From Gekko japonicus (Eukaryota): 64,000 bases of DNA. Below, in pieces: positions 31,814 to 59,840 of this stretch. The notes beneath the pieces were generated by a model. It made no database searches and was not told the DNA's origin. It worked only from the letters and a program-made list of their open reading frames with translations. The stretch lies in the NCBI RefSeq assembly GCF_001447785.1, contig NW_015171537.1:325112-389111 (forward strand). The letters run 5' to 3'. A program made the translations under genes and the position numbers. Numbering within the stretch: the stretch's first letter is position 1; each line of letters opens with the position of its first letter.

Positions 31814-33182
31814 ATGGCTGACAAGGCTGGTCTTTCCTGCTCTCTCACATCAGAGGAGATAGAGTCCTCTCAGATTCCCCATAAGGATGCTATCTGGGAC
31901 TGGAATTATCTAGGGAGGAAGCTCAAACTAACCTACTTTCCTGGCTAAAGGTGGAGGTGAAGAAGGAACTCCAAAAGATGGTTGCTCATTCAGACACTAA
32001 TCAACCTAGTGGGAGTAAAATACATGATCCTTGCAGTACCCAGGACAGCCCTTCTCCTAGAAAAAACAATAGGAAATCCCTCTCTAGGGAGGAACAGGTT
32101 AGTCCTTTATTTAGCGACATGGATGAGGATTCGGGTGCTGAGTCTTCTGCATCTTCGAAAGAGGAGGGAGAGCTGTCTGGGGAAGAAAAAGAGGCAGTCC
32201 CTCTTATTCAGTCCAGATTGTTTCCTACAGATCTGTATAACAAAATGCTTCCTAAGGTGCTGAGAGCTCTGAAACTCTCTTACACGCCTAAAGCTAAGGG
32301 GGATTTAGAGGCAGCAGATTTTCCTGTTGGGTCTGGCAAGGCCATTCCTAAACCAAATATTAAATCTACAATGGTACCTTTGCCTGCCTCCTCCTTTAAT
32401 ATTATCATGGCAGAATGGGAACACCCAGCTAATCCCAAAACAAATAACCCTATGTTTGCCAAACTTTATTCTTTGATTCCAGAGGCCACAAAGAAGATTA
32501 GGCCGCCAGTGGTTGATGATCCCATCAACTCTCTGTATTCCTTGTCTGTTCTGCCAATGGATGCTGATGGTCTCCCCAAAGACAATTGTGATAAGCGTGT
32601 TGAAAAAGCCTTGAGACGGGACTTTGAGGTATCTGCTAGTTCCTTGAGGGCTTCTGCCACGGGCTCCTTGTTTGCCAGGGCGGCATATACGTGGGCCTCA
32701 GATCTTACCACAGTGGACAGTGGCTTACCTAAGAGTTTAAAAGATGAACTTAAAAAGATAGTCTTGGCTACAGCCTTTGTGGCAGATGCATCCTTGCATG
32801 CACTCCAGTTAGGTGCCAGAGCAATGGCCTGTAGTGTTACAGCCCGGCTAATACGTGGCTTAGAGATTGGGAGGCAGACCAGTCAGCCAGAGCAAAGGTG
32901 GTGGCAGTGCCTTTCAGAGGTGTTAATCTATTTGCTGAAGGTCTAGACAGATTCTTAGTGGAAGGCAAGGACAAAAAGAGGGTCCTACCTTCAAAGAAAA
33001 AGGATGTAAAAACTAAAAGGCGTTTTCAGTTCTTTCGAGACTTCAGGGGAGATGATAGACATGGCTACCATAGAGCCTTCAAGGGCAAATGGCAGCACAG
33101 GGCTAGGGATAACAGAGCTCGGCCTTTCGCAGGAAAGGCAGGGCAGAACCCAAAGAACAACAAAAAGGGAGCGCAGGCATGA
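31814..33182 (+). pseudogene. DIRS gag-like ORF1 with frameshifts (~31895, ~32850)
   Basis: 331-aa ORF 31951-32946 plus 32898-33182; conserved DIRS gag-type PVVD, DKRVE and WL..W...PF.G..LF blocks. Confidence 0.85.
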
Positions 33183-33189
33183 TTATGCT

Positions 33190-35068: not shown

Positions 35069-36090
35069 AAGACATGGGGTATGAGGATAGGGTGGTGTCC
35101 ACTTTGCTAGCCTCTAGAAAGAAGTCCACAAATTCAGTGTATAATAGAACCTGGAAGGTGTTTGCTGATTGGTGTGAGGGACGGTGTCTGAATCCACTAT
35201 TGGCTAAAGTAGGGGAAGTATTAGCTTTTCTTCAGCAAGGGTTAGATCAGGGTCTCAGCACGAGTACACTGAAGCATCAGGTGGCAGCTCACTCAGCGGT
35301 GACGGGCGCAAAGAAGGGTAGCTCGTTAGGGCAGCATCCTCATATTAAACATTTTCTGAGGGGCACTTCCCTTATTAACCCTCCACAGGTCCATAGGTTC
35401 CCATCTTGGCACCTAAATACTGTATTGAGAGCTTTATGCGAGATGCCATTTGAGCCCATGGCCTCCTGCCCAGTTAAGGAGCTTACCTTTAAGACGGTGT
35501 TCCTGGTAGGCATTACTTCAGCTCGGAGGGTGTCAGAGTTGAAGGCGTTATCTGCGCACAAAGATTTGTGTGTCTTTCATAAGGATAGGGTGGTCCTTTG
35601 TTCGGATCCAGCCTTTGTGCCTAAAGTTAATTCTTCCTTTCACAGGTCAGAAGATATTGTGCTGCCATCCTTCTGTCCGGACCCCAAGCACGAGAGGGAG
35701 AAAGTTTGGCACTGGTTGGATTTTCGTAGGGCACTCAGCTTTTATCTGGACAGGACTAAGGGGTGGCGAAAATCGGAGTCCTTGTTTGTGGCCTTTAGAA
35801 AATCGGTGTTGGGCAATGCGGTTTCCACTTCCACCCTTAGTAGGTGGATCAGGGGCTGTATCATTCTGGCTTACAAGGCGCAGGGAATGGTTCCCCCTGA
35901 GGGGATTACAGCTCACTCTTTATGAGGAGCGGCCACATCAGTGGTGTATAGGGGATTCCCGTCCTTAGACATTATTTGTAAGGCAGCCACTTGGAAGTCT
36001 ACTCACTCCTTTACTAAACATTATTGGATAGATAAGGTGGCTTCGGCTGAGGCCGCATTTGGCAGGAGAGTTCTTCAGCATGTCCTGTGA
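35008..36090 (+). pseudogene. DIRS tyrosine recombinase
   Basis: ARRVSEL, ITAHSL*GAATS (the catalytic HxxR Arg position is TGA at 35923), then AATWKSTHSFTKHY; in-frame stop at 36088-90. Confidence 0.92.
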
Positions 36091-37749: not shown

Positions 37750-40657
37750 GTAAGCGTCCTTGAGCTCTGATTTCAAATAGGTCTACAAATTGAACTGATT
37801 GTGAACTCTTGTCAGCTACATGTGCTCTTCCCACTGGGTCCTGTCTGCTTAAACCACCATGATATTGCAGGGATATAAATGGATCTCTCAGATACGCAAA
37901 CATACTCTCACCAGATAGTTAAGGGTGAAGTGCTCTGAAGAAGGACCGAGAGATGCCTATATTTATTTATTTTTATTTATTTGTTTGATTGATTTTTACC
38001 CTGCCCTCCCCGCCTTCAGGTTTGACCACATTGGTCTGCAGGGGTTGATGTTACTATATGGTTGTTCATGCTTTACGGCTAGATTGTTTAATGGGACAGA
38101 TGGGGTGGACCAGGGGTTGCTAATATTGTGCATGCCAAGTGTTTTCAGAAAATAGCTGGGACCAGACGGGGCTTTTGCCTAGCAGGGTTTCTGACTGGCT
38201 ACTGGAGATCTGATTGGCTCTCATGGTAAGCTGGGTGTATGCAAGAAAATATTTTTAAACAGTATTTTTATTTTAGAAGGCATCCCATTAAACCAAATTG
38301 CCTGAGTTGAAGAGTTAAGTTGAAGGGCTGTCTTATACAGGGATCCATAGTAGTGGTCAGTTAGATCTGTTGTGTTGAACAGGTATCTTATGCTTGGGTT
38401 CTTGCAGAGTTTTGGTTATTTCCACATTAACTGAGTTTGAAATGACAAGGAAAGAAGAACGGGGGAGGTATGAGCTGGGTGATGAGGAGGCACCAAGAGC
38501 AGACATCCAAATATGCTGCCCTCCCTCCCCAATGCTGCAAGCCACTGACAGCTCCTTTTGCTTAGTTTTCTGAGTCTTTAACCAACAGGTTGAGATAGAG
38601 AATACCCTTCCTGTATCGATATATAGGGTGCCACTTGCATCCATTACCAGAAAGGCTTTGATTCTGAAATGTGGGACAAAACCTAGAATTCACAGTGAAT
38701 GCAAGCCACATGGAGTCATGTGTCATTCTGACAGCTGTGCCGCTGTGTCATCTGCCAATAAGTCCTTAGGGCAATAAAGCATGTGGGGGTAAGGCATGCA
38801 GAAGTAACTTCCAGATGGAACAAGGCTGCATGATGCCAAAGATCTGGTAGGTGTTTCTGATGGTGAACTAGCCACTTGTAGGCTTCCTTTCATAGCAACA
38901 TGCCCAAAGTGCAGCACACAGTACTGATTTTGCTTCCATTAGGCACCCTTCCATTTTAGAACATCTCTCAACATTGGATCACAACGTTCAGTCCCTGACA
39001 GTTTAGTGCGTCAGAGAGGCATTAGCTGCCCCCCCTCCAGTACTGTATGTACATTTGTCTAGTGGCAGCCACTGCTGTCTCAACACCACTTTGACCTTCA
39101 AAGGAATGTATGCTGTGGATTTGTGCAATGGAGGAGCAAATTCCTGAAAGTAACTCCGAAGAACATCTGTCAATTCCTGACACGTCCAGGTGCTCAGGCA
39201 GCAGAGATCTTGCTGCGTTCCAGCCCTTCATGGTTCCCTAGGGCTTTGGGTTCATCAACTACTTTTTTATGGCTCTATTGCTCAGAATAGTGAAGAATAA
39301 GTAAAGAGTAAACTACATTCTACAGGATGAGCAATGAGTCCAATAAGGGGAGCTGAAGCACGCAGTCATCAAAGCTCTGCTTTCCAGTCAAACATGATGT
39401 TGTGTTGATGGACGAGGGGCATAAGAATGGCTGCACAATGCCTTGTGATGAGCCATCCATCTAAATTCAGAGGCAAAGGGCCTGATTTTAGCCCCTGTCA
39501 CCTGATAATAAGAGAAACACTGTCTGCTGAGGCATGTTGGAGTTTCTCATTTTGTCCCTGTTGTGATTGCTATTGCTGCAGCTGGTGTTATTGTTATTTT
39601 AATGCTGTCCTGATAGCCAAGAGAGCAGCATCCCGTGGCAGCAAGTTAAAAAGTTTGTTGAGCTGAAACTCTTCTTTTAATCATAGCCATGTTAATTTCT
39701 ATGGAATATCTTTTAAAAAATAAGAATGTGTATGCATTTCTGTTATTATTCGGGATCTGAGAGCTCTGTAATGCTCCCTGACCTTGTTTAGGATACTTCA
39801 GAGCATCTCTCTACATTGGCTCTGCATATTTCAGTTGTGAATCAGAGTGTAATTGAGCAATCTGCACCTCTCCAGTATCCTTTAAGTCTGCTGCACATCT
39901 TGAAGATAGAATGTGGTAAAATCCAACATTTTTTAAAATCTACTTAATTTTTATCCCACCCTTCCTCCAAGTTGTTCAGGGCAGAGTACATCGACCCCTG
40001 CATTAATTTATCTTTACAACAGCCTTGTGAGGTAGGTTAGGCTGAGAGAAGGTGTCTGGCTCAAGGTTGCCCAGTGTGCTTTACGGATGAATTGGGATTT
40101 GAGTACAGGTTGCCCCACATACTATGATCCTCTAATTCCTGGCTTTCTTAGTAGTGGGGACAGGTGGGGGGTTTGCAGTGAGAACAGAGCCATAAAAAAG
40201 CACAGCTCTTTGGAAAAAAATGTTTGTAGTTAGGGGTAAATACATTTTCTGTAACATCGCTTTGGTGGGCTTTCCTTGATAGGGAGTACCATATTATGAA
40301 AGAATCATAAGCACATGAGTAACATCAGGAGATTGATTTAGATCATCAGGTTCCAGAAAGTTTTCTTGTTGTTGTTTTAAGCTAGATTGTGACCATTGTC
40401 ACCTCTTGGCATTATTCATGGGCATCAGTGATGCTGGTTGCTCTCCATGGTGCTGAATATAGACTTTTTGTTTGCCCCAAGAAACAAAGGCCTGGTTCAG
40501 ATGGTCTAGGAGGTTATCAGCCTTCAGCTCATTGGTCAAGCCATCAAGTGATTTGCAAAGTCCCTGCCCTCAGGGTCATGAGCCCCTCTAGAGCTGTCAT
40601 TTTTGGCTGCCTTTCAGAAGGGTCTGGTGGTGGAGCATATGCTTAGAAAGCAAATTA

Positions 40658-41612
40658 TATAAGAACATAAGAGAGGTCATGTTGGATCAGACCAATGGCC
40701 CATCCAGGCCAGCACTCTGTGTCACACAGTAGCCAAAACCCAGGTGTCATCAGGAGGTCTACCAGCAGGGCCAGAACTCCAGAAGCCTCCCTACTGCTGT
40801 CCCCCTAACATCAAGAATACAGAGTATCACTGCCCCAAACATAGTGTTCCATTTATACCTTATGACCTTTGCTCCATATGTTTATCCAGTCCCCTCTTGA
40901 AGCTGTCTATGCCTGTAGCCACCACCACTTCTTGTGGCACTGAATTCCACATGTTAATTACTCTTTGGATGAAGAAGTACTTCCTTTTAGCTATTCTGAG
41001 TCTACTGCTCATTAATTTCATTGAGTGTTCACAACTTCTTCCATTATGAGAAAGGGAGAAATGTACTTCTTTCTGTCTTCTCTATCCCATGCATAATTCT
41101 GTAAACCTCTATCATGTTACCTCTCAATCATCATTTCTCCAGGCTACAGAGCCCTAACCTCTTTAACCTTTCTTCATAGGGAAGGTGTTCTATCCCCTGG
41201 ATCATTTTAGTTGCCCTTTTCTGCACCTTTTCCAATGCTATATCTTTTTTGAGGTGCAGTGACCAGAACTGTACATGATATTCCAAATGAGGCAGCACCA
41301 TCGATTTATACAGGGGCATTATGATACTAGCTGATTTGTTTTCAATCCTCTTCCTAATAATCCCTAGCATAGCATTTACCTTTGTTTATTGCAGTTGCAC
41401 ACTGAGTCGACATCTTCAGTGAGTGACTCCAACATCTCTCTCCTGATCAGTTAGCACAGGTTCAGACCACATTAACATATATTTATAATTAGGGGTTTTG
41501 TCTCCAATGTGCATTACTTTGCATTTGCCCATGTTGAACCACATTTGCCACATTGACTCTCACTTGCCCAGCCTTGACACATCCCTCTGGAGTGCCTCAC
41601 AGTCCTCCCTAG
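40658..41612 (-). mobile_element. CR1 LINE 3' fragment
   Basis: MLGIIRK...LYKSMVLPHLEY.VQFWS.HLKKD..LEKVQKRATKMI...[10 protein letters not shown]; 3' UTR ending tcttatgttcttat. Confidence 0.93.
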
Positions 41613-42365
41613 TGCCATGGTTCCTGAGAGGAGCCACAGGACAGATCTCTGAACAGTGGAGAAGGTTTCCCTGTGGCTCTGACCTTTGGTTTGTTCATCA
41701 CTACAGTATAATTCCTGGTATTCATCTTGTATTTTCAGTCTTCAGCCCTCTTAATCTTCTGCCCAAAGCCCTTGGCGTGGCACCAGTGAGGTCATAACTC
41801 TGGCTTCCCTTCTTCTTGCCATATGGCTGTGATATCACATGGCCATAGCTCAGTGAGTCTTTTATCTGGAAAGGCTGAGGAACTCATGGCAGCTTCCCTT
41901 AGCTGGGTTTTCTGCATTCTGAGCAGTCACTACACATGGCTGTGGCTGCTAAAACTTCCCCGTGTTTGCATTCCTGATGTTATATCTGTTCATGCGAAAA
42001 CCTAACAATTAGTTGTGAGTTTAAACTGGCATTGATTTAGCTCAAAACCTCAGAAATTCCCCTTATCATGAAATTCAGGGTCTCTCCCAATGTATTTTTC
42101 TTTTCAAATGGAAAACTGCTTTTCATGGCAAATACATACAGTGAAAACTGAAATGGGACCTGAAATGCCACATTGTTCTGTGTATAGGTATTGCGGCTCT
42201 GGAGGATGTGGGTTTTTGGAGGGGAGAGGGGCACAGACACCTGCTGCTGATCTCTGCCACCTTTTTCACTCCATCACCAGGTCCTACTGTGAACCAGTGA
42301 GGGGATTGCCATGTGCCCTTTGCTTCCCATTTCTAAAATGTCTGAAGAGTCTAGATTGTTTCAGC

Positions 42366-42706
42366 CAGGGCTATTTTTGGGCAGGAACGCACAGGAACGG
42401 AGTTCCGGCTGGCTCCCAAGCTGGCCACGCCCAGCAGGAACTCATTAGCATAATAGACCACACCCAACAGCAGAAACTCATTAGGATTGGCTACAATTAG
42501 GGGTGTGTGGCCTAACATGCAAAAAGCCCTGGGTTTTGACAACAAACAAGGTAAAGAGAATAAGAAGCAATAGGTGGGTGTGGCTGGATGACCACACTTC
42601 TGGTAACATGGGGGTGTGGCCTAATATGCAAATGAGCTGTGCTGTCAGGGTGTGGCCTAATATGCTAACGAGTTCCTGCTGGGCTTTTTCTACAAAAAAA
42701 GCCCTG
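42366..42706. mobile_element. hAT-type non-autonomous element
   Basis: cagggctattttt...aaaaaaagccctg; TSD gtttcagc / ctttcagc. Confidence 0.85.
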
Positions 42707-43162
42707 CTTTCAGCCATGCGTGTGGTGTGATTTATGGCTACTATGTTTTATAGTTAATAAAAATACATATAGCCCTTATGTATTACACAGATGACAGAAG
42801 AATATCACAACTAGCAGTGTGATCCTATATCACAAATTTAGACAAGTCCCACCCTTGTGATATTGTAGAACAGCTTCTGTGATAAGTTGTAGTAAATGAC
42901 GATTATCTAGATGCAAGCCCATTTCATAGCTGATCTTCTCTCAGAAGTTATTCTTAGTGGATCTTCTTCAGACGTTGTTGCCCTAGAATTAACCATAATC
43001 ATTATAACACAAGGGACACTACATAGCTGAATGGAATCTTAGTATTATAAAGGAGCATATGCTGTGTTATATAAAACATAGTAGCCATGAATCACAGTGA
43101 TTGCTTGGTTGTGGGTTTTTACACTGTGATCCCGATTTGATTTTCTGCTCTTATATAGAGGC

Positions 43163-43196
<34 letters not shown>
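43163..43196. repeat. (AAT)n microsatellite
   Basis: About 9-10 taa repeats. Confidence 0.9.
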
Positions 43197-43197
<1 letters not shown>

Positions 43198-43481
43198 GAC
43201 ACTTTTCTTCCACTTTCCCCCATTTCTTACAACACACATCTGCACTTACCAGGTTTTGTGAGCTTCTTCCGCCTCCTGTTTATGGGATAGAATATTTGAC
43301 TTCCTTAACATCAGCTTTAATATCTATGGTGTTTTTTTTCCTTTCCACCCCTGCAAGTTGGACTGTTTTAACCTTCTCTGTCTCCTGACCCCCCCCCCCC
43401 CCCCCCCAATCACTCCTGCCATTTTGAAGGATTGGCTTTTGTTTGTTATTCATTGTTCCTTTTGTGTGGGTTCTCTCTCAG

Positions 43482-43670
43482 CTGTGTTGAGGAATACAAG
43501 CTGGCTCCAGATGGCAAATCCTGCCTCATGTTATCAGACATCTGTGAGGGCCCCAAGTGCCTCAAACCAGATACAAAATTCAACGACACTCTCTTTGGGG
43601 AAATGCTGCACGGCTACAACAACAGAACCCAACATGTCAACCAAGGGCAGGTTTTCCAGATGACATTCAG
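43482..43670 (+). CDS. ASTN2: Astrotactin-2 internal coding exon C, CVEEYKLAPDGKSCLMLSDICEGPKCLKPDTKFNDTLFGEMLHGYNNRTQHVNQGQVFQMTF(R)
   Basis: Acceptor ttctctctcAG at 43480-81, donor GTatgt at 43671; 189 nt, phase 2 to phase 2. GG|C completes Gly with exon B. Matches recalled ASTN2. Confidence 0.96.
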
Positions 43671-44037
43671 GTATGTGTTGTCATATTCCCCCTTTCCCTT
43701 TTAGTAGAGTGAAACAGATCTGCAAATTCAGGTTCTTATGCTCAGAATCATGCATTTGCAATACTATATATCTCTAGATGGACCTGGGCATGCCTGTGCA
43801 TCTGCTAGCATTTGAAAGGCATTGTGGCTCTTTAGACTGAAAGAAGTATTGTCTTGGTGCTGAAAGAATTTTGCAAGAAATTCAAGGCTTAAGAGTGTAA
43901 CAAGTTTTGCAGAGTTGTTCTGGGGAAGGAATGTTAGCACTCTTATGGCAGATGGAAGTCGGAACTTGGGGCAATCCTTGTGGTACCTGCATCATGAGTA
44001 TGAGTTCTGCTTCTTAATCTCCATCCAGAATGGATGT

Positions 44038-44242
44038 GTGGATGTGGCTCAGTGGAAGGGCCTGTGCTTGGCCTGCAGAAGATCCCAGGTTCAATCCCTG
44101 GCATCTCCATTTAAAAGACTCTGGCAATAGGTGATGTGAAAGACCCCAGCCTGACATGCTGGAGAGCCTCTGCCAGTCTGTGTAGACAGTACTGACCTCG
44201 ATGGGCCAATGGTCTGATTCAGTATCAGGCCACTTCATGTGT
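44038..44242 (+). mobile_element. tRNA-derived SINE with CR1-like tail
   Basis: gtggctcagtgg A box, ggttcaatccc B box, gatgggccaatggtctgattcagtat...cttcatgtg tail; decayed relatives at ~27070-27240 and ~26190-26335. Confidence 0.8.
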
Positions 44243-47200
44243 GTGCATGACTGCAGGTGGGCACATGCACGTACCACTTTGGAATAACATGAACTTTGTC
44301 TAGATTTCCATGTTTTGCAGCACTAACAAAGTTACATAGCTCCAAATGGTAACACCTTGCCTGCTATTCACAAGCATGTGCTCTTATTTGTCTATAATCC
44401 TTTAAGCCTACTTCAATTACCCAATTAACAGCAAATAAGTTGTCCTAGAATTGATCCACTCTCATTTATAACTAAAAAAAATAGAAAAGGGGGGGTCAGT
44501 TTGTGAGAAGTGTTTTGCTTTTTTTTCTGAAATGTACATGCAACACACTCTAAATTTCTGCAATCTCCAGTCTGTTCAGTGGAACCCCTCCTGTTTTTAA
44601 GGCTTTGTTGAAATATTTCCATAAACTTTCAGGCATTAGAAAAGGTATTCTGCAGCATGCAGTCATGACTACAGTGATGCATACTGTTAATCTCCAACCT
44701 GGAGAAAAGGATATTGTGCCCAAGGAACAGTGTGATGTAGTTCATTTTTGAAGCTAAGATCTGGGCTTTGCTGAGAAGCCTGCAGGCCATGAACTCTTTT
44801 GAGGAAGAATGGAATAACTGTAATGCATTTTTTAAAACTTGCTGAATGCAACCTCTGTCTTGCTCCAACAAGCAGCCGATTTGATGAGGCTCAAAGCAGA
44901 TATGTCCGCACACCAGCAGACTTGGATATATTATTGCTTCCCTTCTTGCTGTATCTCAAGTTGGATGCCTGGTTATATGGGTGTGTGGGAGGTGCTTCAA
45001 GGCCCTTTGGAGAGATTCCTCTGGCAGCAATCTGGCCTCTGTCCCCTTTTGTTGTTCTCCTGATCTGGAGAAGCTCAGTTTATATATTGGCTCCAGGGAG
45101 GGGCCTGGATCTGTGTGGTCAAGGGAAGTCAAGACTCAGACCCCCAAGGCTATGTAGTAGCCATAAAGGTTTTTATAACTCTTTCCCTTCCTCCTCTTTT
45201 CTTCCTTTATGGTCTGAATTGCCCAATTTCATCTGCAGTTTTACTGGCAAGCTGAAGTTGGACACAGCTGCTGTGTCAATGACAGCTGGGACGATTAGAG
45301 TCCTGCGAGTCATCTGCTGATTCAGCAGCCCTGTTCTCCACCGCCCTCCTCACCAGATAAAGGTTGATGATGTTGCAAATCTTAAAAGGCTCTTCATGTC
45401 ACAATAGACAGTGGTTTGTTCACGAGAGGCTGCCCTGGGGCACTCAACAGCTTTCCGAAGGCCTTGGAGAATAATTAGGGAGAAATTCTGGAAGAGCATC
45501 TGTGTTCATCTGTAGCAGTGAGAAGGCAAACATGGTTGTGAAATCAGAAAGGGGATGGGGGGGATGGGGCTGTTGCCCGGACAGAGATCTGTGCAAAGAA
45601 GTATCTTGCTGTCCAGTCAGAGTGCCAATCCAGATACTTTGTATACTTCGAACAGACTCTTTTCTAATTGTTTTGAGTGTCCCTGCATAAATGATAAAAT
45701 GCAATAGTGGTCTGATTCAGAGGAAGTTGTGCGTGTTCATCTGTGTTCAAGAAGGGATGTTGGATATAGCTATAAAAAGTGCACAGTGTTTTCCAGTAGA
45801 GAGGCATACAGGAAACACGAGGGCATTCAGTTGGACTTGTTCCAACAAGTTGATTAGTGTAGTTCTTCTGTGGTGTGAGGTATGTGTTGGAACTTAGTTT
45901 TGTTGTTTTCTATTAATAAATTATATTGGTTTTTAAAAAATGAAACTTGAAATTCAAGCTGAGGTTCTTGGGCATTTGAGGAATTTATGTATTTGTATTT
46001 ATTTTTACTTTTTAATGACTGTTCTTCCTCTAAAGACTTCAGAGTGGTATACATGGTTTCTTCTTCTCCTCTTCTCTCATGTGTCCTCACCAACCACAAC
46101 CCTGTGAAGTAGGTCAGGCTGAGAATTGATTGGTCAGGGGTTACTACAGTGAGCTTCGAGGCAGAGTGGGGATAAAAACCTACACCCCCCCATGGCCTGA
46201 GTCCGCCACTGTAGTCGCTCTGCCACATTGGTTCTTTTACGTCCTGCACTTCTCTTCCCTCCCTCTAAGGAACTCAACATGGCATTTTAGCATCATCATG
46301 AACTCTGTAATGTGACTGAGACTGAAAGAGGGAGAGACTTGTTGAAGGCCATCCAGTAAATTTCATAGCTGAATGAAGTCCCCACATACAATTTAGGATT
46401 TTCTAGCCACTTTCTGTACCTGGATGTAGGCAGGTAGCTGATCCATTTGCCTGTGCCCAGACCCATTCTGAACTTACATGAAACAGTACTTGGGAGCAGT
46501 CTGTCATAAGTGGGATTGATGATGGGTACCAGCAACCCTGAAAGAGCCCTGCATGCTCTTCTGAGTCCCTAGCAGGTTTATCATGTCTTTTGCACACCTC
46601 TGTCCACACATGTGAGCTGGGAATACATTACCTCCGGGGGGGGGGAGCTTTTCTTGCCAAAAGGGCTCCTGGGCAAGTGGGGGGAAAACCCACACCTGGT
46701 GTGAGCACTGTTGAGAAATGCATGATTCTCCTTTGCTGGTTGTGTGTGATGTAGCTTCTGAACTCTGTGGTGTGTCAAGAGCAGCTGTAGATGTTACAGG
46801 GTGGTACCCAATGAGAGTGGGAAAGGGCACAAGTGCCTCTTGCTTCCTATTCCCTGTGCTCATTCATGTTGTCCAAAATAGAACTGCCTCTTTCTCATTC
46901 ACACACATAGCAAGATGTACAAGTTCCATGGACAAAAGACAGCTTGCATGTCTCATTACAAACTGTCCCATACCTCTCCAGGATGAAAAGTGTAGAGTAG
47001 TGGTTAGATCAGGACTGGAGAGACCCACCTTCAGATCCCTACTATGCTATGAGACTCATTGGGGGGGGGGGGGGGTTGGATCAGTTACTTTCTTTGCCTA
47101 ACCTAACCTTCCCTTGTAAGGTGGTTGTGGGGAGAGAATGGGGAGGAGAGAATCATGGACACTACCACAAGGAAGAGGAAAAATCTCATAGGTGATAGAG

Positions 47201-48262
47201 GAAATAAAATAAGTGGGAGAAGCAGATGTGATGCATCTTTCTTCCCCCTATAGTATTCAAAACAGAGACCTACAAAGGCATGAGGACCATGCACAGCCCA
47301 CTCCCTCATGTCCTTTGGTGCTCGAAGCTGTTCTTCATTGTGCACATAAACAGAGATGATCAGCATAGGTCAGATGTGCCATTTTGCAGTTACCAATCTC
47401 TCTCCTTTCTGCTCTCTCTCTTTTAGAATGAAAAGATAAACAATGCCTTACAACTGCTGTGAAAAGAAATGATACACATATTGTAAAGCACGGTGCATAG
47501 CAAGTGTACATTTTTTGTGTATTTCTACATCTTAATGCTGGGTCTCTTTCTGACAATTATGTCACTAGTGCTAATTTTCTGGATTTAAATGTATGCTTTT
47601 AGCTTGTCTGTACACTTCTGTGTACAGCATTTGCATGTGGAGTCTTTGTCTAGTTGCTGTGCAGGGACAGGTGCTGTGGGGTTGGAACAACATTCCATCA
47701 CCCTGTGACAAGGGATGAGAAGGGAAGCTTAATAGGGGAGAAATTATTAACTTAAAAGATGCAATTTGGCCTAATTTTCGTTGATATTCAAGGACCTCTC
47801 TAAGCACCAAGGGTACCAGCTGTTTGAGAAGCCCTTAATTTGGTGCGTGTGAAACATAGCAGGAAACCGCCTAATACAGGGGATTAAAAGCTTTCTTTGG
47901 CAAATCAGGAGCACACCGTCAGAATCAAGGGACTGCATCTTTTGGAGAGATTGATAGTTCCTTGGATCCCTCAGCTAAAAGAATGAGTCAGCCTGCTTCC
48001 CAGGTCTCTGTAGCTTCCTGAATAAATAAGTACATGTGTCAGCATGGGACGAGAACAGGCAATGGCTGCTAGAAGGTCTCTTTCCCGGACCTTTCCTGGG
48101 CCTTTATCCAAGTATCTTCTGGAGTCATACACCTTAGGCCAACTTTAGAGAACGAGCTAGGTAGGAAAGAACAGGGAGACCCAGAGAAGTTTGGATGGAG
48201 GCAAAAGAGTAAGTGTGGATTAAAGGTAATAATGCAATGAATGTACATCTTTCTACATCTTA

Positions 48263-48928
48263 GGGAGCGATGGTGCAGGTAGTACGACGCCTGCAGGTAA
48301 CATCAATAGCGAACAGCCACAATGGCTGTTCAAATCCCCACCGTGGCCGGGTTGAGCCCCCGGCCCCAGTCCCAGCTCCCGCCAACCCAGCGGCTCAAAA
48401 GTAATAACAAGTAGACAAATGGGTACCTGCCCTAGGTGACAGGGGGGCACCCTCCTCCTGGTTCGTGCCAGGAGTGCGGTCGATGGCGGCAGTGGCGGCA
48501 GGCGGAGCGGTGAGAGTAATGGCGGCGGAGCAGTGGCGGAGCAGCGACGATCCCAGGAGGCGGCGACCAGATTGAGTGGTGGAGGCGGAGCCAGGTTGAC
48601 GCAGCAACGAGGGGACGCAGCACGACAGGAGCCCAATGGGACGCATAGCCGGAAGCTGCGCCCCGAAGCAACTGCGCACCAGCGGGAGTCACCAGAGCCT
48701 GCCCGGAGACGGTTGCTAGCCATCCGAAGTCGTCCGAATCGTCAGGAACGAGGCCCGCCGGAGAAGGAATAAGATACGCCGCATGGGTGCTGGTAGGGAG
48801 CCCCCTCCCCGCGGAAATTGTGGCCCTAGTTAGGCATTCAACTACGCAAGTAGTTCATTGTAAACCGCTCTGAGACCCATTAGGGGTTATGAGCGGTATA
48901 GAAATCGAAATATATAAATATAAATATA
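48263..48928 (+). mobile_element. Unrecognised composite CpG-rich SINE-like element
   Basis: Pol III-like A/B boxes, a segment homologous to the Sauria SINE core, a GC-rich body, and an L2-type tail with (aaatat) repeats. Confidence 0.7.
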
Positions 48929-50741
48929 TACATCCCAGAAGAGTGAAGATTGAGCTTTTGAGAGGCACAAAAAGAACTTCAGCCCCCTCACTTGGTAGAG
49001 CTTCACTTTTTTGCTCCCAGTTTCATTCATTATTCTGATATGTCCCTGTTTCAGTGTGGTTTTTAGGGCTTCTTTCTTCTTCTTTATGTGACGTGCAGAT
49101 GTGATGATGATGACGATGACATGGCAACCAGTCAGAGTTGGCTGTCTGATGGGATCACAGGGCTTTACATTGCCCACAGTTGGAAGGGAAGGGAGAAAAG
49201 AGGAATGGGTCCCTATTGCTGAAATAAGGGAAGCAATGTTCTGTGACCTGTTGTGCTGTTCAGTTAATGTCATGGCCCACCAACATTACATGGCAAAGCT
49301 TCCCCTATAATCTAGCAGTAGGCATGCATAGGTTATGGACTTCAACAGGATTAGGATCTACATCTCCAGCAGCTTTCTGCCTGAACTAGCTAACAACATA
49401 AGATAGGACTGGGGCAAGGGGGAGTCGGACCTGTTGCCTGGACAATGGGATCAGCACTCACACACACTGTTGTTCAAGATGCCTCAGTATTGGCTCAGCA
49501 CTAATTACATTTGCAAAAATATAGAGAAAAATTGAACTTTGGGGTTGGAAGAGAGATGAAACAAATCAGCTATTGGCAAGCATATTTCCTCCCTTCATGA
49601 AAGGAAGATTTTTAGATCACTTCCTAGCAATTGGTTTTTCACCCCTTGTTGAGACTGCAGCTGGTGATTGCAAAAGAATAAAGATTGCATGTTGCTACTC
49701 CCCCCATGTTATATTGGTGAATTATCAATAAACATTAGGGGAATTGCTTGCAGCCACACAGCTTTATTTAGCTAGGGGCTCAGCTCTGGGTCCAAGATGT
49801 AAAGAGTGATCACAACTCTACCTCCCTTTTCTCCCCTGCAGGGCACATGTTTTGCTTAGCAGTGGGGCAGAGCTCAAGCTTTTGCTAGCTGTTCCCAAAT
49901 ATCAGAGGGGATTAGCCCTCAAATGGCTTGTTTGTTTCCTCCTAATCTGTTCTCCCTTCATCCTCTTCCCCTAGGGAATAAAAGGATTTCTTGTTTAAGA
50001 GCCGTTTGCACTTTGTAGTTTTAAGCTGTTTGTAGTTAGAAACCCCTAAATTATCACACAGGGCTTGGGACTTGGTTTGCTACATTATAAATGCCCAGAT
50101 AAAATATTTGACTGACAGGTTTCCTTTCTGTCTCTTTCCTCCTTTTTTGTTGTTTCGTTCCCTCTTGCTCATTTTCTCCCTTCTGTAAATTGAGGGGAAG
50201 CTGGTCTGATCTCCCTAAACTGGAAGGTCATACAGAACTGCCTGTCCCTTGCCTTCCCCTGTTCTGTCTGCTTTAGCCATGACTGATTTGATCTGTAGGC
50301 TGCCACTTGAGACTCCACTGCGTGGATAGCAACAGGCTGCTGTAGCTGATATGAGGCGCACGTCCCTAATTCCTGCTGTTATGCATTTAGGATCCCCAGG
50401 ACTTCATAGTAGGCATGCCAACAGCTAAGTAATAGACAAGGAGGATCGAGATCTGTAGGGAATCAAGGAAGCGTCAGGAAAAACAGCAAACAATCTTTAT
50501 AGCCAGGGAAGCTGAGGTCTTGTGGGATGGCTGGGGACAGTATAGTGGACCAAGACGTAGAGTGACATCACATCCCTGCAGAGCTCCCTCCCCTTCCCAA
50601 ACTCCGCCCTCCCCAAACACCACTTCCAACTCTTCAGAAATTCCATTATCTATTTATTTACTTCATTGTGAAGTAAAGATCCACCTGACAGGCTGAACTC
50701 CAGTGGCTTCTGAAACTAATAATTCCCAGGGAAGACTTGAG

Positions 50742-50947
50742 CAATGTTCCCTCTAAGATGTGGAGTCTTGTGAGCAAAATTTCTGCTTTGTGAGCTACTG
50801 GCATTAAAGTTGTGGGCGAGCAATTTGGCAATAGCATAAATTAGTTTGCTCTGGAGCTATCCTTCCTGAGCTAAGACAAAAATGTGTGAGCCGGAGGCTA
50901 AAAAACTGTGAGCTAGCTCACACTAACTCAGCTTAGAGGGAACACTG
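50742..50947. mobile_element. hAT-type MITE
   Basis: TIRs caatgttccctctaag / cttagagggaacactg; perfect TSD gacttgag. Confidence 0.92.
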
Positions 50948-53288
50948 GACTTGAGGTAAACACCCCTCTCCCAGCACTTTCATTAACTTCCTTGGATGGA
51001 ATATGGTTGTTCAATAAAGAAGCCTAAAGCTTTGCTGGTCTCACATAGTCTTATTTATTTATTTATTTATTAAATGTTTACCCTGCCCTCCCAGCCAAGG
51101 CCAGCGCAGGGCGGCTTACATAATATCAAATACATAATTTACAATAAAACATGAATAATTTAAATTAAAACAAAACTAATATCATTTAAACTATACAACT
51201 CAATAAGTGCTAGTAAGTTTTCAGGTGTTGTACATTTCAACAAGAAGAGGTGATATCCATGTTTTGAAGTGGTGAGAATGTTTCTGGATGCTGGGTAAGG
51301 AGGGGAAGCTCCCTTGCATTGGTCCATAATGACAGGCCGGATATATAAAGATGGACAGCCAGATTAGGTACTCTGTAGGATAATGGTGGGGGAGTTGCCT
51401 GCAGGAGAAGAATATTGCAGAAATTCATCTAGGGCACCAGCATTCCAGAGATGAACTGTAGGCTCTGTAGTAAGAGAGAGACTGTCTGCACAGAAACATG
51501 CATGCCATTTAGCTGTTGGTGCACCAGAATACAGTACCCAAAACAAAACTATTTTCTTTGGGTTTTCCCCCTTTATTCCCCCCCCTCCATTATATTTATT
51601 TGTTTGCCTCTACTAGATAACTACCCTGCTCCTGTAAATTCTGTTTGTTTCCCTTAAGTGCCTTTTAATCTTTCTCCCTCTCAGTGTATAGCGTTACCAC
51701 TCCAAGGCTGTGTGTTTTCCAGTTCTACAGTTGCATTATATTGCATTTTTGGGTGGCCAATAAATTGAAGTGTTGGGGTGGGTAAAGAATTCATATTCTG
51801 TCTTTCCAGAGGAAAGGATGGAAGGTCTAAGTACTTCTGTGACTGTGTGTGTGTGTGGGGGGGGGATTGTTGAATAGGCATTGCAACCATTACTGTACTA
51901 TTGTCTTGCCCCCTCCTAATCGTAGCCACTTACACTTTAAAAGAACATTTACAAAATGATGCCAAGAGAAACCTCTTCCTATCTTGTTGAAGTGCCAAGA
52001 ACTTGCACATGTTTCTTTCTTTTTTTTCTTGCCAGAGGCTGCATGTATATATGGAAGACTTTGAATATTTATAAAAGAAGCCAGGCAGGGGTGAAAGTGA
52101 TAAGGAACTATCTATGGTATTTAGAATTCAGCAAAAAAAGTTCTTTTTGCTTTGTTTTAATGTTCATTATTGTAAAAAAAAAAGTATTATTTTCCCCTAG
52201 TGAACTTATGATTCCCTCCTTAGCTATTCATTTACAAAAGCCCCCAAATCTAGTGTTTGTTGGCTTCAGGGAACAAGCTATCCCTGAGCTTGTGCACAGT
52301 GCCTATCTCAGGGAAACTGTCAAAGTCTGGGAGCATGGGAACTGAGTAATCCTTCAGCCTGTCTGACCAAGCTCTTGGAAGCTCCTCTGCTCCATCACAG
52401 AAAAACCTAAGACTGTGTGCCTTTAAATGCAATCTGTGGGACCTCCCTGCACCCATTCCAACCATAGCTACAGTCATTGTGGGCTTTGTGGAGGTCTTAG
52501 AGAGAATGTATAACGGTCCCTGTGCTGTTTGCTTCTTTGTTTAACCAAAAGGCTGTTCCTTGTTGAGCATTCAGATTTAGACACGGAAGGCAAAACTCAT
52601 GAAAATTCAGCTGAAATTGTGGGTGTCATCTCCCTCACACACCCCCACCCCGAAAGCAGTCCTGGCTTCCAGATCCAAAGTGGCAGGCTTTTGTTTCAGC
52701 AAAGCTTTGTTAATATTGTCAAGCTTCATGTCAGGTCAGCAAACCGACGAGGGAGAAATTGTCATAATATTGATGGCAAGTCTGGGAAGTTAATTTTAAA
52801 GCTGTCACTGGGTTTCTCCCCAGCTGCTGCTTCTTAATAAAACTCCATGATGATTATGGGTCATGCCTGACAGCTCGAGAGCAAGCCTTGTAACTGGAGC
52901 CTGCATGCGAGGCTATCTTTATTTCCCCAAGCCAGTACCCTCTTCCCCCTCCTGTCCGCCCTCTTGAGCCTGGTTTATCACACAACATTACAGCCGGCCC
53001 AAATGGATCTTGCTTTAGTGAATTTGGGAGGCTCTAAATAGAGACCTGGATCTGCATTTCCCTGCCTCATACCTTACCTTCTCTCTTGGAGACTTCTGTA
53101 GCTTCCCTTTCTCAGTGTGGTTGGAGATCTTGACCATAACAGTTGCTAGGCAACTGGCATGTACTTCCTCCTATAAATGTTGACTCTTTAAATATTTTGT
53201 GGGGCTGGGGGGGCACTTTACTGTCACTCTGGATGAATTAGCGTGTTTGTACTAATTTTTTATTATCATTTTAAGGCCTCTACACTAC

Positions 53289-53625
53289 TAGGGTTGCCAG
53301 ATCCCTGGTCTAGGCAGGGGTTCCCTGGTTTTCGGGGCTTCCACCCTCTGCCAGCCAGCTGGCCGGGGGGGGGGGGAACCCACCCCCGAACAGCCTCCTC
53401 TTGCGGCAATGTCTCCGACACGATGATGTCACATGGAAGTGATGTCATCATGCTGGGGACATCACGTGGTGACACTCCAGTTAGAACGTTACCATGTGAT
53501 GTCCCTGGCATGATGATGTCACTTCCATGTGATGTCATGTGTTGCTGATGTTGCCCCACCCACCCCACTCCTGGAAAGCTCCCTTCCACCCCCCACTGTC
53601 AGGGTAAATTGACCTGGCAACCCTG
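53289..53625. mobile_element. hAT-type MITE with internal palindrome
   Basis: TIRs tagggttgccag / ctggcaaccctg; TSD tacactac / ttcactac. Confidence 0.88.
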
Positions 53626-53964
53626 TTCACTACTGAGGTGTAGAGCTGTCTCACAACAATAGATGCATCTACAATTTCCAAGAACTTATCTAGATCTTGA
53701 ATTGCAGAACACTATCTACCAGTCAGATATCTGACTGACAATTCATCCTCCTCCTCAGTTGATCATATGAGCTTTATGATTAATCATTCCGATCACTATG
53801 TATTTGCATATGAACAAAGTAGTAGCTTTGAAGAAATGAGCATGTTTTGCTTCAAAACAGTGAACATGTTTTTTTCAAAACCATTTAGAAGAGGCATTCC
53901 CTTATATAAGGGAGAAGGGGGAATACCTCTTGAAACTGTGAGGCTTAAAATATTTAATATAGTA

Positions 53965-54400
53965 CTTTATTTTATTTCAAACAATACAATGACCCAACGG
54001 TTTTGGACAACATAAATCACACTAATACCACCCTCTAATTCCACCCTCAAGTTGAAGACACTGCAGCCATAAAAATTGCCATAGCCAGGGCTGTACCAAA
54101 ATCAGTATCAGCTAGCAAAAAAGCCAGGGAACTGGAAAAGCACCAGAAACTCTGGTTGAACCCAGAAACTTCTCAAAGGGGCCACCAGCTTGCAAGCAAA
54201 GAAGACATGTGCCAGAAGACATCTGTCAATGTTTCAGTTGCACCAGATCCACCAGGGCAGTCTATCTGAGTAAGCTGGGAAGTTGTCCAATATTTAGGGA
54301 CAGTCAATTGATATTAAAAAAAATAAGATGGAAGTGTAGAAGGTGGCACACTACCAAAAAATATTGTGGAGCACATTCTACAAGCCCTAGCAAGGGCCAG
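53965..54400 (-). mobile_element. Degenerate non-LTR retrotransposon 3' end
   Basis: Reverse complement shows YSDRL.P...ETL..HVFFAC (CCHC knuckle remnant), LLADTD and an aataaa-rich end. Confidence 0.4.
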
Positions 54401-57400
54401 CTGACAATCTAAGTTCTACAGTGCTCCATCAAGAGAGAGCCTTCGAGCCAAAGGGACAATAGATAACAAGAACACAGAAGACATATTTAAGATACTTATG
54501 TTTGTTTTGCTTAATTGGTATGGGTTTTTTTAGTTGTTCAAAAGGTTTTTAATTGGTTAAATTATCCATTTAGTCAACTTTATATTGTAATCTTAATCAA
54601 ATCTCAGCTGTTTGTTTGCCTTCTTTGGTGAGTAAAGACAGACAATAAGAGCACTGAGCCTTTTACTGAAATGTCTTCTGTATGTTACTCCAGAGGAATT
54701 CAGGACAGGTTCTAGTACACATGTCCTTATCTCATGGTTTTCCATTGAATTATAACTTACTATTTTTGACTGTTTCTTAAATTTTAATCCTACTTCTCAG
54801 ACAAAATTGGCTCCCAAAGCCGTGTGTATAAACTAAAAATATACAAATTACATCAAAAATCAGTACAAATGTTCCTAGGAGAAAGGATTCTGAACTGAAT
54901 TGGATCCAGGTGTGATGGCATGGTGCTTAGTTGCTTCTCATATTCCCTCTGCAGTCCTTGTCAACAGGAATTCTGCTTGGCAAGAATGAGAATTTTGGTT
55001 CTCCCACAACCATTCTGATTACTTTGCCACAATGTCCCCCCTTGGTACCCATTCAGATGAGCCTGTGTTGCTAGAGTTGTGGTCATATAAATGCTCAAAC
55101 TCAGTGTCCTTGTTGCTTTCAGACTCCTGTTTTTGTAGAAAGCTGGTGTGCCTAAAACTGTCTTCTTGCAGGGCCAGTTCAAACCTCTGTTGACATGGTA
55201 CATAACCCTCTGTAGCATACCATTTATAACTGGGGAGTTTCCTCTGTGTCACTGCTGACCTTAAGTTCAGTAGATTGTGACAGTATGGAGAAAATTGCCC
55301 TTTCCACACTAGATGGAGGCAGCTGCCATGTAGAACAACTTAAAACATGTTCTACGCAGTGGCCATTTAAAGTGCATCAGCCCCCAAAGATGAATTAAAG
55401 AGAGAAGGGAACAGGATTATGTAGTCTTCTGTGAACTGAAGGGTGCATGCAACTGCTGACGTTTGTAGAATGGGGATATTGGTGAAGTTGAGCCTTTGCC
55501 ATCCTTTACTCAGTCCGTTTCTGTCTGTCCATTCTAGGCTTCTTCCTCTCAAGGAAACAGAGTTGAGGAAGACTATATCTGTATATGGCTACATGTAACA
55601 GGATACTGCTTCTGTTCAAACACCGTGTGTGCAAAAATACATATTGAAATGGTACAGAAGTAAGGTTCATCCTTGGGTATTAACCTGAGAAAGGTGCAAA
55701 CCATTGTTTTCCTTTCATTGTATCAGCACAGCATGGAACCTTTATTTCTATGACACACTTTCCTCTCTCCAAGGATGCATATGAAACTCATTTGGGTGGG
55801 AAATGACAAAACATTATATTAAAAACCATAAAATCTCCAAGAAAAGCAACAACTCCCCCCCCCCCAAATCACTGTTAAAAACAACAACAGATAACATTAA
55901 CGTACAGCAAAAGCAGCCCAGGGTTATAACAACTAAAAGCTGGGCAGAAATAGTCTTGTAATCTTAGCAAAAGCTGTATAAGAAAGTATTTTCCAGAGAA
56001 CTGGAACCATCACCATGAAAGCCCTAGATCTCTCTGCTTTAGGTTTTACTTGGTGGGTAGAAGGTTCTACTGATAATGCCTGTTAGCCAGATCATAGCTG
56101 CAAGTGGGCTTCTGCTCTGGTATATGGCATAAAATGAAGTTTTCTTTGTAATACTACACATTGATCTTGACTACGATGTGTTTATCAAACCCTGGGGTCT
56201 TGTTATTAGCACATGACTGTTGATCTGTAGAAAGGGCTGCTGCATACATTGTCCAACAGAGAGAGTGTGGCAGGGTGATGTTAGGCTTCTGCAACTCCCC
56301 CCCCCCCCCCTCTCTATAATTCTGTGCAATGGCTTGTATCTCCAGGATGTGGGCCAGCTCTTCTCCATGCTGCTCTGTCACCCAAGCCAAGGCCTGATTC
56401 GTAGATCTCTGAGTACATTTTGAGTAGCCCTCTGGGAATCTTAAATGTAAAGCATGTAACAACATTAAATTAATTTCATTGATTTTCAGAAGAGGGGTCC
56501 TTTGAAACATCTGAATGCATAAAGAATAATTGGTCTGTTTATTATTCCTGCCCCGGAGAGCACAGCATTTTCTCGGTGGCTTGAATAGCTTGTTTACCTC
56601 TTACCCTTCAGCTTGGCATAATAGATAGATCTGCTTTCCTGGGGCTGGCTTCTATTTCATTCTCTTTTATTATTAGTTTTTTGTGCAATTCTATTACCTG
56701 TTCAGCGCTCTAAAGCCTTAGACATATTGGTTGGAGGGTAATGATGGTTTTCGAACCCAGCTAATGCCTCAGAAACACACGCCACCCCAATGGATTGGAC
56801 CAAGCGACGTGCCGAGTGGAGCGAGAAACTGAGTCATTGTCGTTTAAGTGACATAGCGGAGCCCTTGTGCAGGCGGGCTGGCCCATCGTCTCCCATTTGC
56901 TATGCAGGCTCACGCAGGGAAATTCAAAGCAGCATGCAAAAACCAAAGGCCTCCTGCCATCTGAGAACGGCATTAGTTCCCCGCAATCCATTCTGAATGA
57001 GCCGGGCTCCTACTGGCACCGATGTCTCTTTGAGGCAATTTGGCCTTTGTAATTTTCTCTGCATGCAGATGAGTCCCCCAAGGTCACAGAGCCCTGTCAC
57101 AATACAAGTGGGCACATGCCCTACATGATCCATCTGCCCCGATTATGCTTCACTGGCAAGATAACTGGAGTGCTCTTTAGTTGCTGTTTTGGGGACACTA
57201 CACAGTGGCAGTTACCAACTTAATGGAAGGGGGTAAATGAAAAAAAGGTGGGTTTATAAACATATCCCCCTCTCCCAATTTTATCATACAAATTATTGCT
57301 ACTTTACCTGATTTCTGGTATTAGGGATACAATTATTGCTTGTTTCTTTGCAAATTTTGTTAGTCGCATGTTTTGGTTTGGGATGGCCAGGTAGAAAAGA

Positions 57401-58383
57401 ATGGATGGAGTAGGAATCATGAACCCATAAAGAGAGAGAGAGAGCTAATTCTGAGTAATGAAAAAGATCCTGAGCTGGTCCATCTCCCCAGGCATGTTAC
57501 TAAGTTTTGTTCTGTCTTGGAAACAGAACATGGAGTAAGAAGAGCACCAGAAATGAAGCTACAGTGTCAGCATCACAGAGAGCAATCCAGTTGTTGTTGT
57601 TTTTTGGGGGTAAATAAAAACTATTTTTTTTAAAAAAAATGTTTATGCAATAAAATCCTAGAGCATATCTTTCTACAGTCTTTTTTACAACCAGGGTCAA
57701 GCTACCATTAGCTGACACCCAAACAGCAGAGAAGCATGGAAGGGAATAAGTTATACAAAAGATACAAAGGATCCAACCGTGTATAAATAATTAAAAATAT
57801 ATATTCAACATTCAATGAGTATGATAATCTAAACCTATATAAATAGTGTAGTTTTTCAAGCAGCTGGGATTAAGCTGCCAGTAGCTTACAAGCTACCTGC
57901 TGGAGACCCTGGGAGCAGAACAATGGCTTGTGGACACAAATAGACCTGAGGTCTATGGAGGAGGGAAAGGGATTTGTGTATAGTTCTCACATTGTGATGG
58001 TTGGTAAATGAGCTTGTGAGACATCAACATAAATGCATCTCATATTTACTTTCATGACTTTTTGGGGAGGGGGGTAATTCTTCAGTGATTTAGGCTTAAG
58101 CAACAAGTGCTTTGTTTTTAACGAGTGCTAAGGATTCCCCAGCACTTAACAAATTCTGCAGTTTAGACTGTGTTTGGATGCTGGTGATGCACTAACAGTC
58201 GTGCAGACTCTGAGGTTCCTGATAAGTGGAGCTGATTGCAAAACAAGTAGGGATGGTTCATTTATTGGCAGTTTCTACCTGTTTGAAGCTCCCACCCCAC
58301 TTCCCTCCAGCCATAATTTGTATTCCAAGCTTGACTAAGCAGTGCAAACACTTGGGAAACGACATAAGGAGAGGCTCCAAAAA

Positions 58384-59840
58384 ATTGCAAAATTCAGGCT
58401 TAAACTGAAGAAAGTTGGGAAAACTACCAGGCCATTCAGATTTAACCTAGATCACATCCCTTATGAATATACAGTGGAGATGAAGAATAGGTTTAAGGTA
58501 CTAGATTTGATAGAGTGCCTGAAGAACTATGGACAGAGGTTCGTGGTATTGTACAGGAGGCAGCAATCAGCACCAAACCGAAGAAAAAGAAATGCAAGAA
58601 AGTGAAGTAGCTGTCTGATGAGGCTTTACAAATAGCTGAGGAAAAAAGAAAAGCAAAACGCAAAGGTGAAGAGGAAACATTTACCCGATTGAATGCAGAT
58701 TTCCAGAGAACAGCAGGGAGAGATAAGGAGGCCTTCCTGAATTAACAATGCAAAGTAATAGAGGAAAACAACAGAGTGGGCAGGACTAGAGATCTCTTCA
58801 AGAAAATTGGAGAAATCAAGGGAGCGTTCCATGCAAAGCTGGCCATGATAAAGGACAAAAACGGTAGGGACCTAACAGAAGCAGAAGAGATTAGGAAAAG
58901 ATGGCAAGAATACACAGAAGAACTATACAAGAAGGACCTCAATGTCCCTGACAACCACGACGGTGTGATCAGTGTTCTTGAGCCAGACATCCTGGAGTGT
59001 GAAGTCAAATGGGCCTTAGCAAGCGTTACTAACAACAAAGCTAGTGGAGATAATGGTATCCCAACTGAGCTATTGAAAGTCCTAAAAGATGATGCTGTTA
59101 AAGTGCTGTGGTGGCTCAAGTGGTTAAGACACTGAACTGCAGGCTGTGGAAGGTCAGTAGTTCAGCACTTCGAGACCCGGGTGCCGCATGATGGAGTGAG
59201 CTCCCATCTCTAGTTCCAGCTCCTGCCAACCTAGCAGTTCGAAAGCAAGAAATTGCAAGTAGATAAATAGGTACCACTTCGGTGTGAAGGTAACAGCGTT
59301 CCGTGCGCCTTGGTGTTTAGTCATGCTGGCCACATGACCACGGAAATGTCTTCGGACAGCGCTGGCTCTTCAGCTTTGAAATGGAGATGAGCACCGCAAC
59401 CCTAGAGTCGGATTCGCCTGGCTTTCGAGCAAGGGAACCTTTACCTTTACCTTTTACAGTATGCCAGCAAATTTGGAAAATGCAACAGTGGCCACAGGAT
59501 TGGAAAAGGCCAGTTTACATTTCAATCCCAAAGAAGGGCAATGCCAAGGAATGTTCAAACTATTACACAATTGCACTTATTTCACATGATCAAGATTCTA
59601 CAAGCTAGGCTTCAGCAGTACGTGGATAGAGAACTGCCAAAAGTACAAGCTGAGTTTTGAACAGGTAGAGGAACTAGAGATCAAATTGCCAACATTCACT
59701 GGATTATGGAGAAAGCAAGGGAGCACCAGAAAAACATCTACATCTGCTTCATTGACTACACTAAAGCCTTTGACTGTGTGGATTACAAAAAACTGTGGCA
59801 AGTCCTTAAAGAGATGGGAGTACCAGGCCACCTCACATGT
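58384..59840 (+). mobile_element. RTE-BovB LINE internal fragment (interrupted by a Sauria SINE)
   Basis: GRTRDLFKKI, RWQEYTEELYKKDL, EPDILECEVKWAL, LKDDAVKVL | CQQIWK.QQWPQDWKR, PKKGNAKECSNY, CFIDY.KAFDCVD. Confidence 0.95.
59105..59456 (+). mobile_element. Sauria SINE nested in BovB
   Basis: Near-identical to 23316-23664; splits the BovB KVL|..CQQ sequence; no TSD. Confidence 0.92.

Follow-up and report, generated by a model that had tools for sequence, protein, structure and literature searches.

A long SINE that joins a Sauria core to an L2-type 3' end forms a swarm of lineages in Gekko japonicus

Introduction

SINEs built on a Sauria core have been filed with more than one kind of 3' end. 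The repeat tables for Anolis carolinensis place ACASINE2, ACASINE2a-d and ACASINE3 under SINE/tRNA-Sauria-L2, and those for A. sagrei list five de novo families in the same class; ACASINE appears there as tRNA-Sauria-RTE, and AnolisSINE2 and SINE2-1_ACar as tRNA-Sauria (PMC9596491). AnolisSINE2 is reported to be mobilised by Anolis L2 and SINE2-1_ACar to be partnered by Vingi (PMC3747384, PMC4476161). Tail exchange between SINEs is an established process (PMC5786205) and a tail swap on this core is in itself not new, since existing catalogues list Sauria-core SINEs with RTE or L2 ends, as well as SINE2-1 and SINE2-1B_ACar with Vingi ends. Two further squamate families bear on what follows: Squam2, a tRNA-derived SINE (PMC10702118), and Squam3, which is described as 218–271 nt long with a CORE-derived body and a different head, an L2-derived end with (TAAA)n and rare target duplications (PMC7983390). 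The 175 SINE families listed in SINEBase in 2012 range from 75 to 662 nt (PMC3531059). Searches of main-text literature for tRNA-Sauria-L2 and related terms found no paper, and the tuatara and CR1 supplements contained no relevant rows.

Here, we analyse a candidate composite SINE in a 64,000-nucleotide stretch of the Gekko japonicus genome (contig NW_015171537.1, positions 325,112 to 389,111), hereafter the window, to which all unprefixed coordinates refer. The initial annotation, made from the sequence of this stretch, described a tRNA-like head, a Sauria core, a GC-rich body and an L2-type tail and proposed an undescribed composite family. Our results support a composite family with a Sauria-type 5' part, place its design in a class already labelled in Anolis, and reveal something that the annotation had missed: the window copy is one twig among at least ~5,000 copies that belong to many lineages.

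Results

A full-length copy with a Sauria-type 5' part

The element occupies 48263–48928 on the plus strand (666 nt) and is a whole copy, as other copies share both ends. It was annotated as a CpG-rich island in an AT-rich intron. The island is evident (59.8% GC and a CpG observed/expected ratio of 0.87, against 0.25 for the window), while "AT-rich" overstates the case for 2-kb flanks of 44.6% GC, and among the joints listed across 39000–58900 none resembles a splice over the element. All of the motifs named in the annotation were found where it had placed them.

The tRNA-like head (48263–48345) contains an A box at 48271–48282, a 9-bp hairpin at 48311–48331 and a B box at 48328–48337. Its resemblance to tRNA is weak, with 2 of 100 shuffles scoring as well for the window copy. 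Gapped alignments of the heads at loci L043 (48/72) and L051 (46/73) to tRNA-Lys(TTT) give 63–67% identity, equalled by 0 and 2 of 100 shuffles, in a comparison set made up only of Lys and Cys genes and tRNA-Ala-like repeats; SINEBase asks for ≥60% identity to a tRNA over ≥60 nt, and with so small a set the fit of the heads is tentative. An Rfam search of the element and six relatives returned nothing relevant and no tRNA match, and a Pfam search of the frames within the element was likewise empty. Tandem arrays of tRNA-Ala-like heads elsewhere in the genome displaced genuine tRNA genes from the Rfam results.

The head is followed by the segment held in common with the Sauria SINE, the core (48346–48427; BLAST E 2e-11). 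Compared with two Sauria-type copies in the window it scores z 17–21, a value equalled by none of 300 shuffles. The identities first reported for this segment were reproduced against the Sauria-type copy at 59101–59447: 28 of 34 letters at 48368–48401 are the same, with all six differences transitions, as are 17 of 19 letters at 48409–48427. Over the first ~180 nt the two elements are 70–74% identical in aligned columns; the head taken alone compares weakly (z 0.1–3.0), as does the tail (4 of 300 shuffles equal), and neither the middle nor the 3' module rises above the shuffles.

The window holds four Sauria-type copies, at 59101–59447 (+), 23316–23664 (+), 7970–8305 (-) and 9198–9528 (-), which are 4–14% apart and were named by their ACCTTT end, their length and a by-eye match to a Podarcis sequence (PMC13295347). 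To the eye, that Podarcis sequence shows a similar stretch of head plus core (PMC13295347). The copy at 59101 lies in a reverse transcriptase-bearing LINE fragment, and the one at 7970–8305 carries a 13-nt target duplication.

Downstream of the core the annotation had recorded some 400 bp of unrelated sequence. As a single block this stretch did not survive; it resolves into a hairpin in the position that it has in Sauria, a variable middle of ~310 nt and a conserved 3' module of ~75 nt. The first segment (48426–48474) consists of hairpin H1 (48426–48443), a conserved GGCACCC and hairpin H2 (48455–48474), with both hairpins present in the centroid fold. The middle (48475–48779) is GC- and purine-rich with 11% T, changes fast, shows graded homology across lineages and is ~270–390 nt long among copies. 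The 3' module (48780–48858) includes the family motif at 48819–48834 and a variable hairpin at 48840–48855. The L2-type 3' stem-loop (48859–48911, stem 48865–48896) leads into an A-rich repeat tail (48912–48928), here (AAATAT)n and in most copies (TAAA)n.

The window copy is young, as the annotation had suggested on other grounds: measured against the leave-one-out consensus of the six copies closest to it, it differs at 9 of 432 non-CpG positions (2.1%) and at 8 of 100 CpG positions (8.0%). A candidate 6-nt target duplication, TACATC, lies at 48254–48259, 3 nt ahead of the head, and at 48929–48934; a further TACATC is present at 48244–48249, upstream of the candidate left copy. The left junction is present in two DNA sequencing runs, neither of which lists an empty-site joint for this copy. 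In RNA runs, 75–83% of the reads at the element continue into other copies.

The family is a swarm of lineages

A search of the source genome, which the annotation had recommended, used a 681-nt query and scored 40 of 5,068 candidates, the window copy among them. The 39 other scored matches are 80–94% identical to the query and 32 of them span from query nucleotide 33 or earlier to 664 or later. Copies begin at a common GGGAGCGG and finish in (TAAA)n. Exact matches to short motifs, which are lower bounds on copy number, number 4,952 for a 16-nt motif of the 3' module (5 for its control), 1,821 for the core, 878 for the head (control 0), and 557 and 1,379 for two tail patterns; reversed patterns served as controls and matched 0–5 times. 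Dispersal over many contigs and lengths of 588–743 nt agree with the SINEBase description of SINEs as interspersed elements under 1 kb, and all three counts for head, core and 3' module exceed its threshold of at least 100 copies.

The lineage of the window copy is itself small, with a 19-nt marker that occurs 45 times. A second copy in locus L015 pointed to a sister lineage in which head, core and tail are the same and the middle is different. Such lineages are numerous. When motif hits were taken by contig order, the first 30 yielded 22 usable copies that fell into 18 clusters at 85% identity, and 74 usable copies out of 90 formed 55 clusters with a median pairwise identity of 63%. One singleton was followed up and had 39 relatives at 76–89% identity over its middle, indicating that it represents a lineage rather than a decayed copy.

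Full-length copies number 46, lie on many contigs and measure 588–743 nt, counted to 60 nt into the tail; their median CpG observed/expected ratio is 0.83. A recognisable head is retained in 41 of 100 parsed loci, consistent with frequent 5' truncation. Total tree length is 10.0 for the middle and 4.2 for the 3' module, and the distances for three modules agree across 42 copies (rho 0.72–0.85). These data argue that the middle has mostly evolved by vertical descent and rapid change. The lineage at L080 and L161 is at most a possible recombinant: its 5' part and middle place it in one clade and its 3' module in another, in a post hoc comparison with a p-AU of 0.14 for the 3' module.

Conserved stems and scarce T runs

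Covariation supports H1. In 24 stem variants all 48 pairs are legal and 40 are Watson–Crick, where shuffles give 28.5 and none of 5,000 does as well; these pair counts ignore kinship and come from a parse that kept 65 of 139 loci and allowed restricted letters. The window copy has one change in this stem, at 48439. At the variable position of the tail stem, all 29 copies parsed out of 30 have a legal pair (T-A 18, C-G 7, T-G 4, C-A 0); these counts again disregard kinship and were taken from copies picked by another motif. For the variable hairpin of the 3' module, 16 of 18 variable segments fold, compared with 55% of shuffles. The fold of the whole element is no better than that of shuffles (z -0.87). 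A long-range pairing of GGCACCC with GGGTGCC around the middle was also considered and dropped: the two are complementary and near-invariant, show no compensating change and are unpaired with each other in the predicted fold.

TTTT occurs inside 1 of the 46 full copies where 8.9 are expected and in none of 21 lineage representatives where 4.5 are expected, a depletion that would be expected were pol III obliged to transcribe the whole element. The A and B boxes together with this scarcity of T runs suggest that members of the swarm are likely transcribed by pol III.

The tail resembles the 3' end of a reverse transcriptase-encoding LINE

The proposed L2-type tail held up. Aligned with the 3' end of a local LINE, it matches at 38 of 48 letters (z 8.4; none of 1,000 shuffles equal), and it is about as close to the tail of a Squam3-like SINE (38/54). 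We used the LINE 3' end found in locus L035 to gather 30 LINE loci; in all 30, a stem-loop and (TAAA)n of the SINE-tail form come after the end of an ORF, and the same ORF contains RVT_1 (E 1.5e-35). This LINE likely belongs to the L2 clade, a placement that follows its ORF2 motifs and tail form rather than a reference tree. The Squam3 account describes L2-derived tails of this form (PMC7983390). The 3' module had no match in the LINE 3' UTR. A LINE with the exact tail of the SINE was not found among 60 loci drawn with two tail patterns. At none of these loci did an ORF extend into the tail; almost all contained the SINE 3' module, and the rest resembled short 5'-cut stubs.

Target duplications in the swarm are 0–7 nt long. 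None of 41 copies has one of at least 8 nt, and 4 have one of at least 6 nt, where flank-swapped controls give 2.75%. Insertions at L059, L051 and L103 into other repeats, each of which could be compared with its uninterrupted form, leave the host continuous, with about 0, 3–4 and 6 nt repeated. Short or absent duplications fit the 1–9 bp reported for L2 (PMC4476161).

Members are joined to Squam3-like sequence at the shared stem-loop in two places: at L015 2080–2200 the tail of a member runs into a Squam3-like 3' piece, and at L019 2100–2260 a member sits antisense in a Squam3-like tail. At L027 780–1600 the head of the element, together with its 5' flank, is present twice, ~700 nt apart, reflecting a local duplication or an assembly artefact.

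Discussion

Altogether, these data lead us to favor a model in which pol III transcribes the SINEs of the swarm and L2 provides, in trans, the target-primed reverse transcription that mobilises them, many source copies having been active at the same time; we put the probability of this reading at roughly 85%. We envision a scenario in which pol III initiates from the A and B boxes and transcribes through the T-poor body. The ORF2 protein of L2 would then bind the 3' stem-loop and start priming at a nick, assisted by pairing between (TAAA)n and the target. Concurrent activity of many sources would have let a weakly constrained middle diverge while the stems at either end were retained. The Sauria core and the L2 tail were likely fused by a template switch in an ancestor, and the family may be either an offshoot of Sauria that exchanged its tail or a sister lineage.

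Several alternatives must be weighed against this model. Chance assembly at one site, from pieces of a tRNA and of a Sauria SINE plus an L2 end, was one of the outcomes that the initial annotation had named as fatal to its proposal, and nested insertions are indeed frequent here (L033, L054 and L168); recurrence of the whole arrangement in 32 of 39 other matches refutes it, and with 46 full-length copies from many lineages and module distances that agree, we consider it vanishingly improbable. An internally deleted non-autonomous LINE, whose 5' UTR would supply the GC-rich middle and to which a SINE head would have been added, is hard to credit on present evidence. SINE middles derived from LINE 5' UTRs are known (PMC5786205), and local LINE 5' regions are likewise GC-rich and variable: the L2-type LINEs at L145 2297–3650 and L143 2400–3480 have long GC-rich 5' regions of about 1.1–1.4 kb that differ strongly between subfamilies, with short motifs near the ORF in common and no clear ORF1 seen. 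Against these regions the middle reaches a best z of 4.4, with mean z of 1.4–1.6 in sense and 0.0–0.5 in antisense. However, this best of 38 comparisons is matched by antisense controls (4.0), neither of the two 5' regions gives a convincing match to the middle, and the only donors identified in PMC5786205 are RTE and Vingi. The comparison covered two 5' regions because the long "open frames" of full-length LINEs proved to be assembly gaps.

A third alternative accepts the mechanism and holds that the family is already catalogued, as a counterpart of ACASINE2, ACASINE3 or another Repbase or Dfam entry; we regard this as distinctly possible, though we lean against it. The tRNA-Sauria-L2 labels in the Anolis tables, which cover several subfamilies at 11.7–15.1% divergence in A. 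carolinensis and five families in A. sagrei (PMC9596491), and the presence of ACASINE2 among the named tuatara SINE matches (PMC7116210) speak for it. On the other side, the three squamate SINEs of PMC10702118 are about 190–350 nt long, compared with 588–743 nt for the swarm, and the main-text literature yielded no description of a comparably long family.

How new is the element? Its design is not, as the Anolis labels show that this design has been catalogued (PMC9596491), and to that extent the description "undescribed composite" is weakened. Judged by class label and module make-up, the window copy belongs by design to tRNA-Sauria-L2: it carries a Sauria core and an L2-type 3' end, the clade name of the latter resting on ORF2 motifs and the Squam3 description. 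In label the swarm is like ACASINE2, ACASINE2a-d and ACASINE3, with a tRNA head, a Sauria core, an L2-type end and subfamilies, a likeness of labels rather than of consensus sequences. The swarm itself is 588–743 nt long, with a fast middle of ~270–390 nt and a conserved 3' module of ~75 nt, features that may set it apart from these families. AnolisSINE2, compared by its published description, is listed as tRNA-Sauria and reported to be mobilised by L2, as is likely for the swarm; its class label lacks an L2 end.

The other relatives are more distant. The Sauria SINE (Squam1; ACASINE, tRNA-Sauria-RTE) resembles the swarm in the first ~180 nt, the core and the hairpin directly after the core, which stands at the same place in both. 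It differs in length (331–349 nt in the four window copies, about 330–350 nt for the family) and in its Bov-B tail with ACCTTT, whereas the swarm copy is 666 nt long, ends in the (TAAA)n type of tail and lacks the Sauria 3' half; Sauria can also bear long duplications, as the 13 nt at one of four window copies illustrate. Squam3 has an L2-derived end, (TAAA)n, rare target duplications and a tail stem-loop that in local copies is similar to that of the swarm (PMC7983390). Its length of 218–271 nt, its CORE-derived body and its head are unlike those of our element, and the likeness is confined to the last ~60 nt: a local Squam3-like copy matches only nt 563–622 of the consensus. Squam2 is a squamate tRNA-SINE like the swarm (PMC10702118), and the likely Squam2 copy at 44037, so labelled by inference, has no BLAST match to the element.

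The length of the swarm members and the coexistence of many young lineages may be unrecorded. A bolder reading, to which we give somewhat less than even odds, is that the swarm is an unrecorded SINE superfamily at or above the top catalogued size. It would consist of small and young lineages, tens to hundreds of them existing together in place of a few master subfamilies, with a fast ~300-nt middle between selected stems. Its members, at 588–743 nt, reach or exceed the 662-nt maximum of SINEBase in 2012. Such a superfamily would provide a natural covariation map of what the L2 enzyme and pol III require in a passenger RNA. It would also offer a case, independent or ancestral, of a Sauria core riding L2. 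Were the family unrecorded, it would also mean thousands of unannotated CpG-rich inserts in a reptile genome, young insertion markers, and an unusually large stock of natural variants from which the RNA structure recognised by the L2 enzyme could be mapped.

Other repeats in the window and genome

Sauria and swarm families overlapped in time, as each is found inserted in the other: Sauria copies lie within members at L054 and L168, and a member lies within a Sauria copy at L033. At L054 (about 950–1500) the Sauria copy is antisense in the swarm member and is flanked by an unusually long duplication of ~70 nt. At L033 1110–1880 a 5'-cut member sits in the Sauria 3' end, creating a chimera with a Sauria head and an L2 tail followed by the ACCTTT end. 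This chimera could be the seed of a new composite.

The window also contains, at 31885–35925 (+), long frames that match LAP2alpha (E 1e-6) and RVT_1 (E 3e-18) and are followed by a frame that by eye is tyrosine recombinase-like; this is likely a DIRS-type retrotransposon. At 44037–44110 (+), ARAGORN calls a "tRNA-Pro" that is similar to tRNA-Ala-like repeat heads; it is likely no tRNA gene but the head of a Squam2-type SINE, by inferred label. Heads of the tRNA-Ala-like type also form tandem arrays, with a period of ~138 nt, at L201 672–1710, where 8 units were called, and at L190, L191 and L209; these arrays resemble the 139-nt Squam2-derived satellite described in PMC10702118. At L002 1–450 a Squam3-like SINE has its 3' part repeated in tandem with a period of 121 nt, an array that resembles described SINE-derived satellites. 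Finally, short repeats at 42366–42706 and about 50740–50948 have very deep RNA-seq coverage that stems from copies elsewhere, and the many strand-switch joints at the first of these suggest an inverted-repeat (MITE-like) element.
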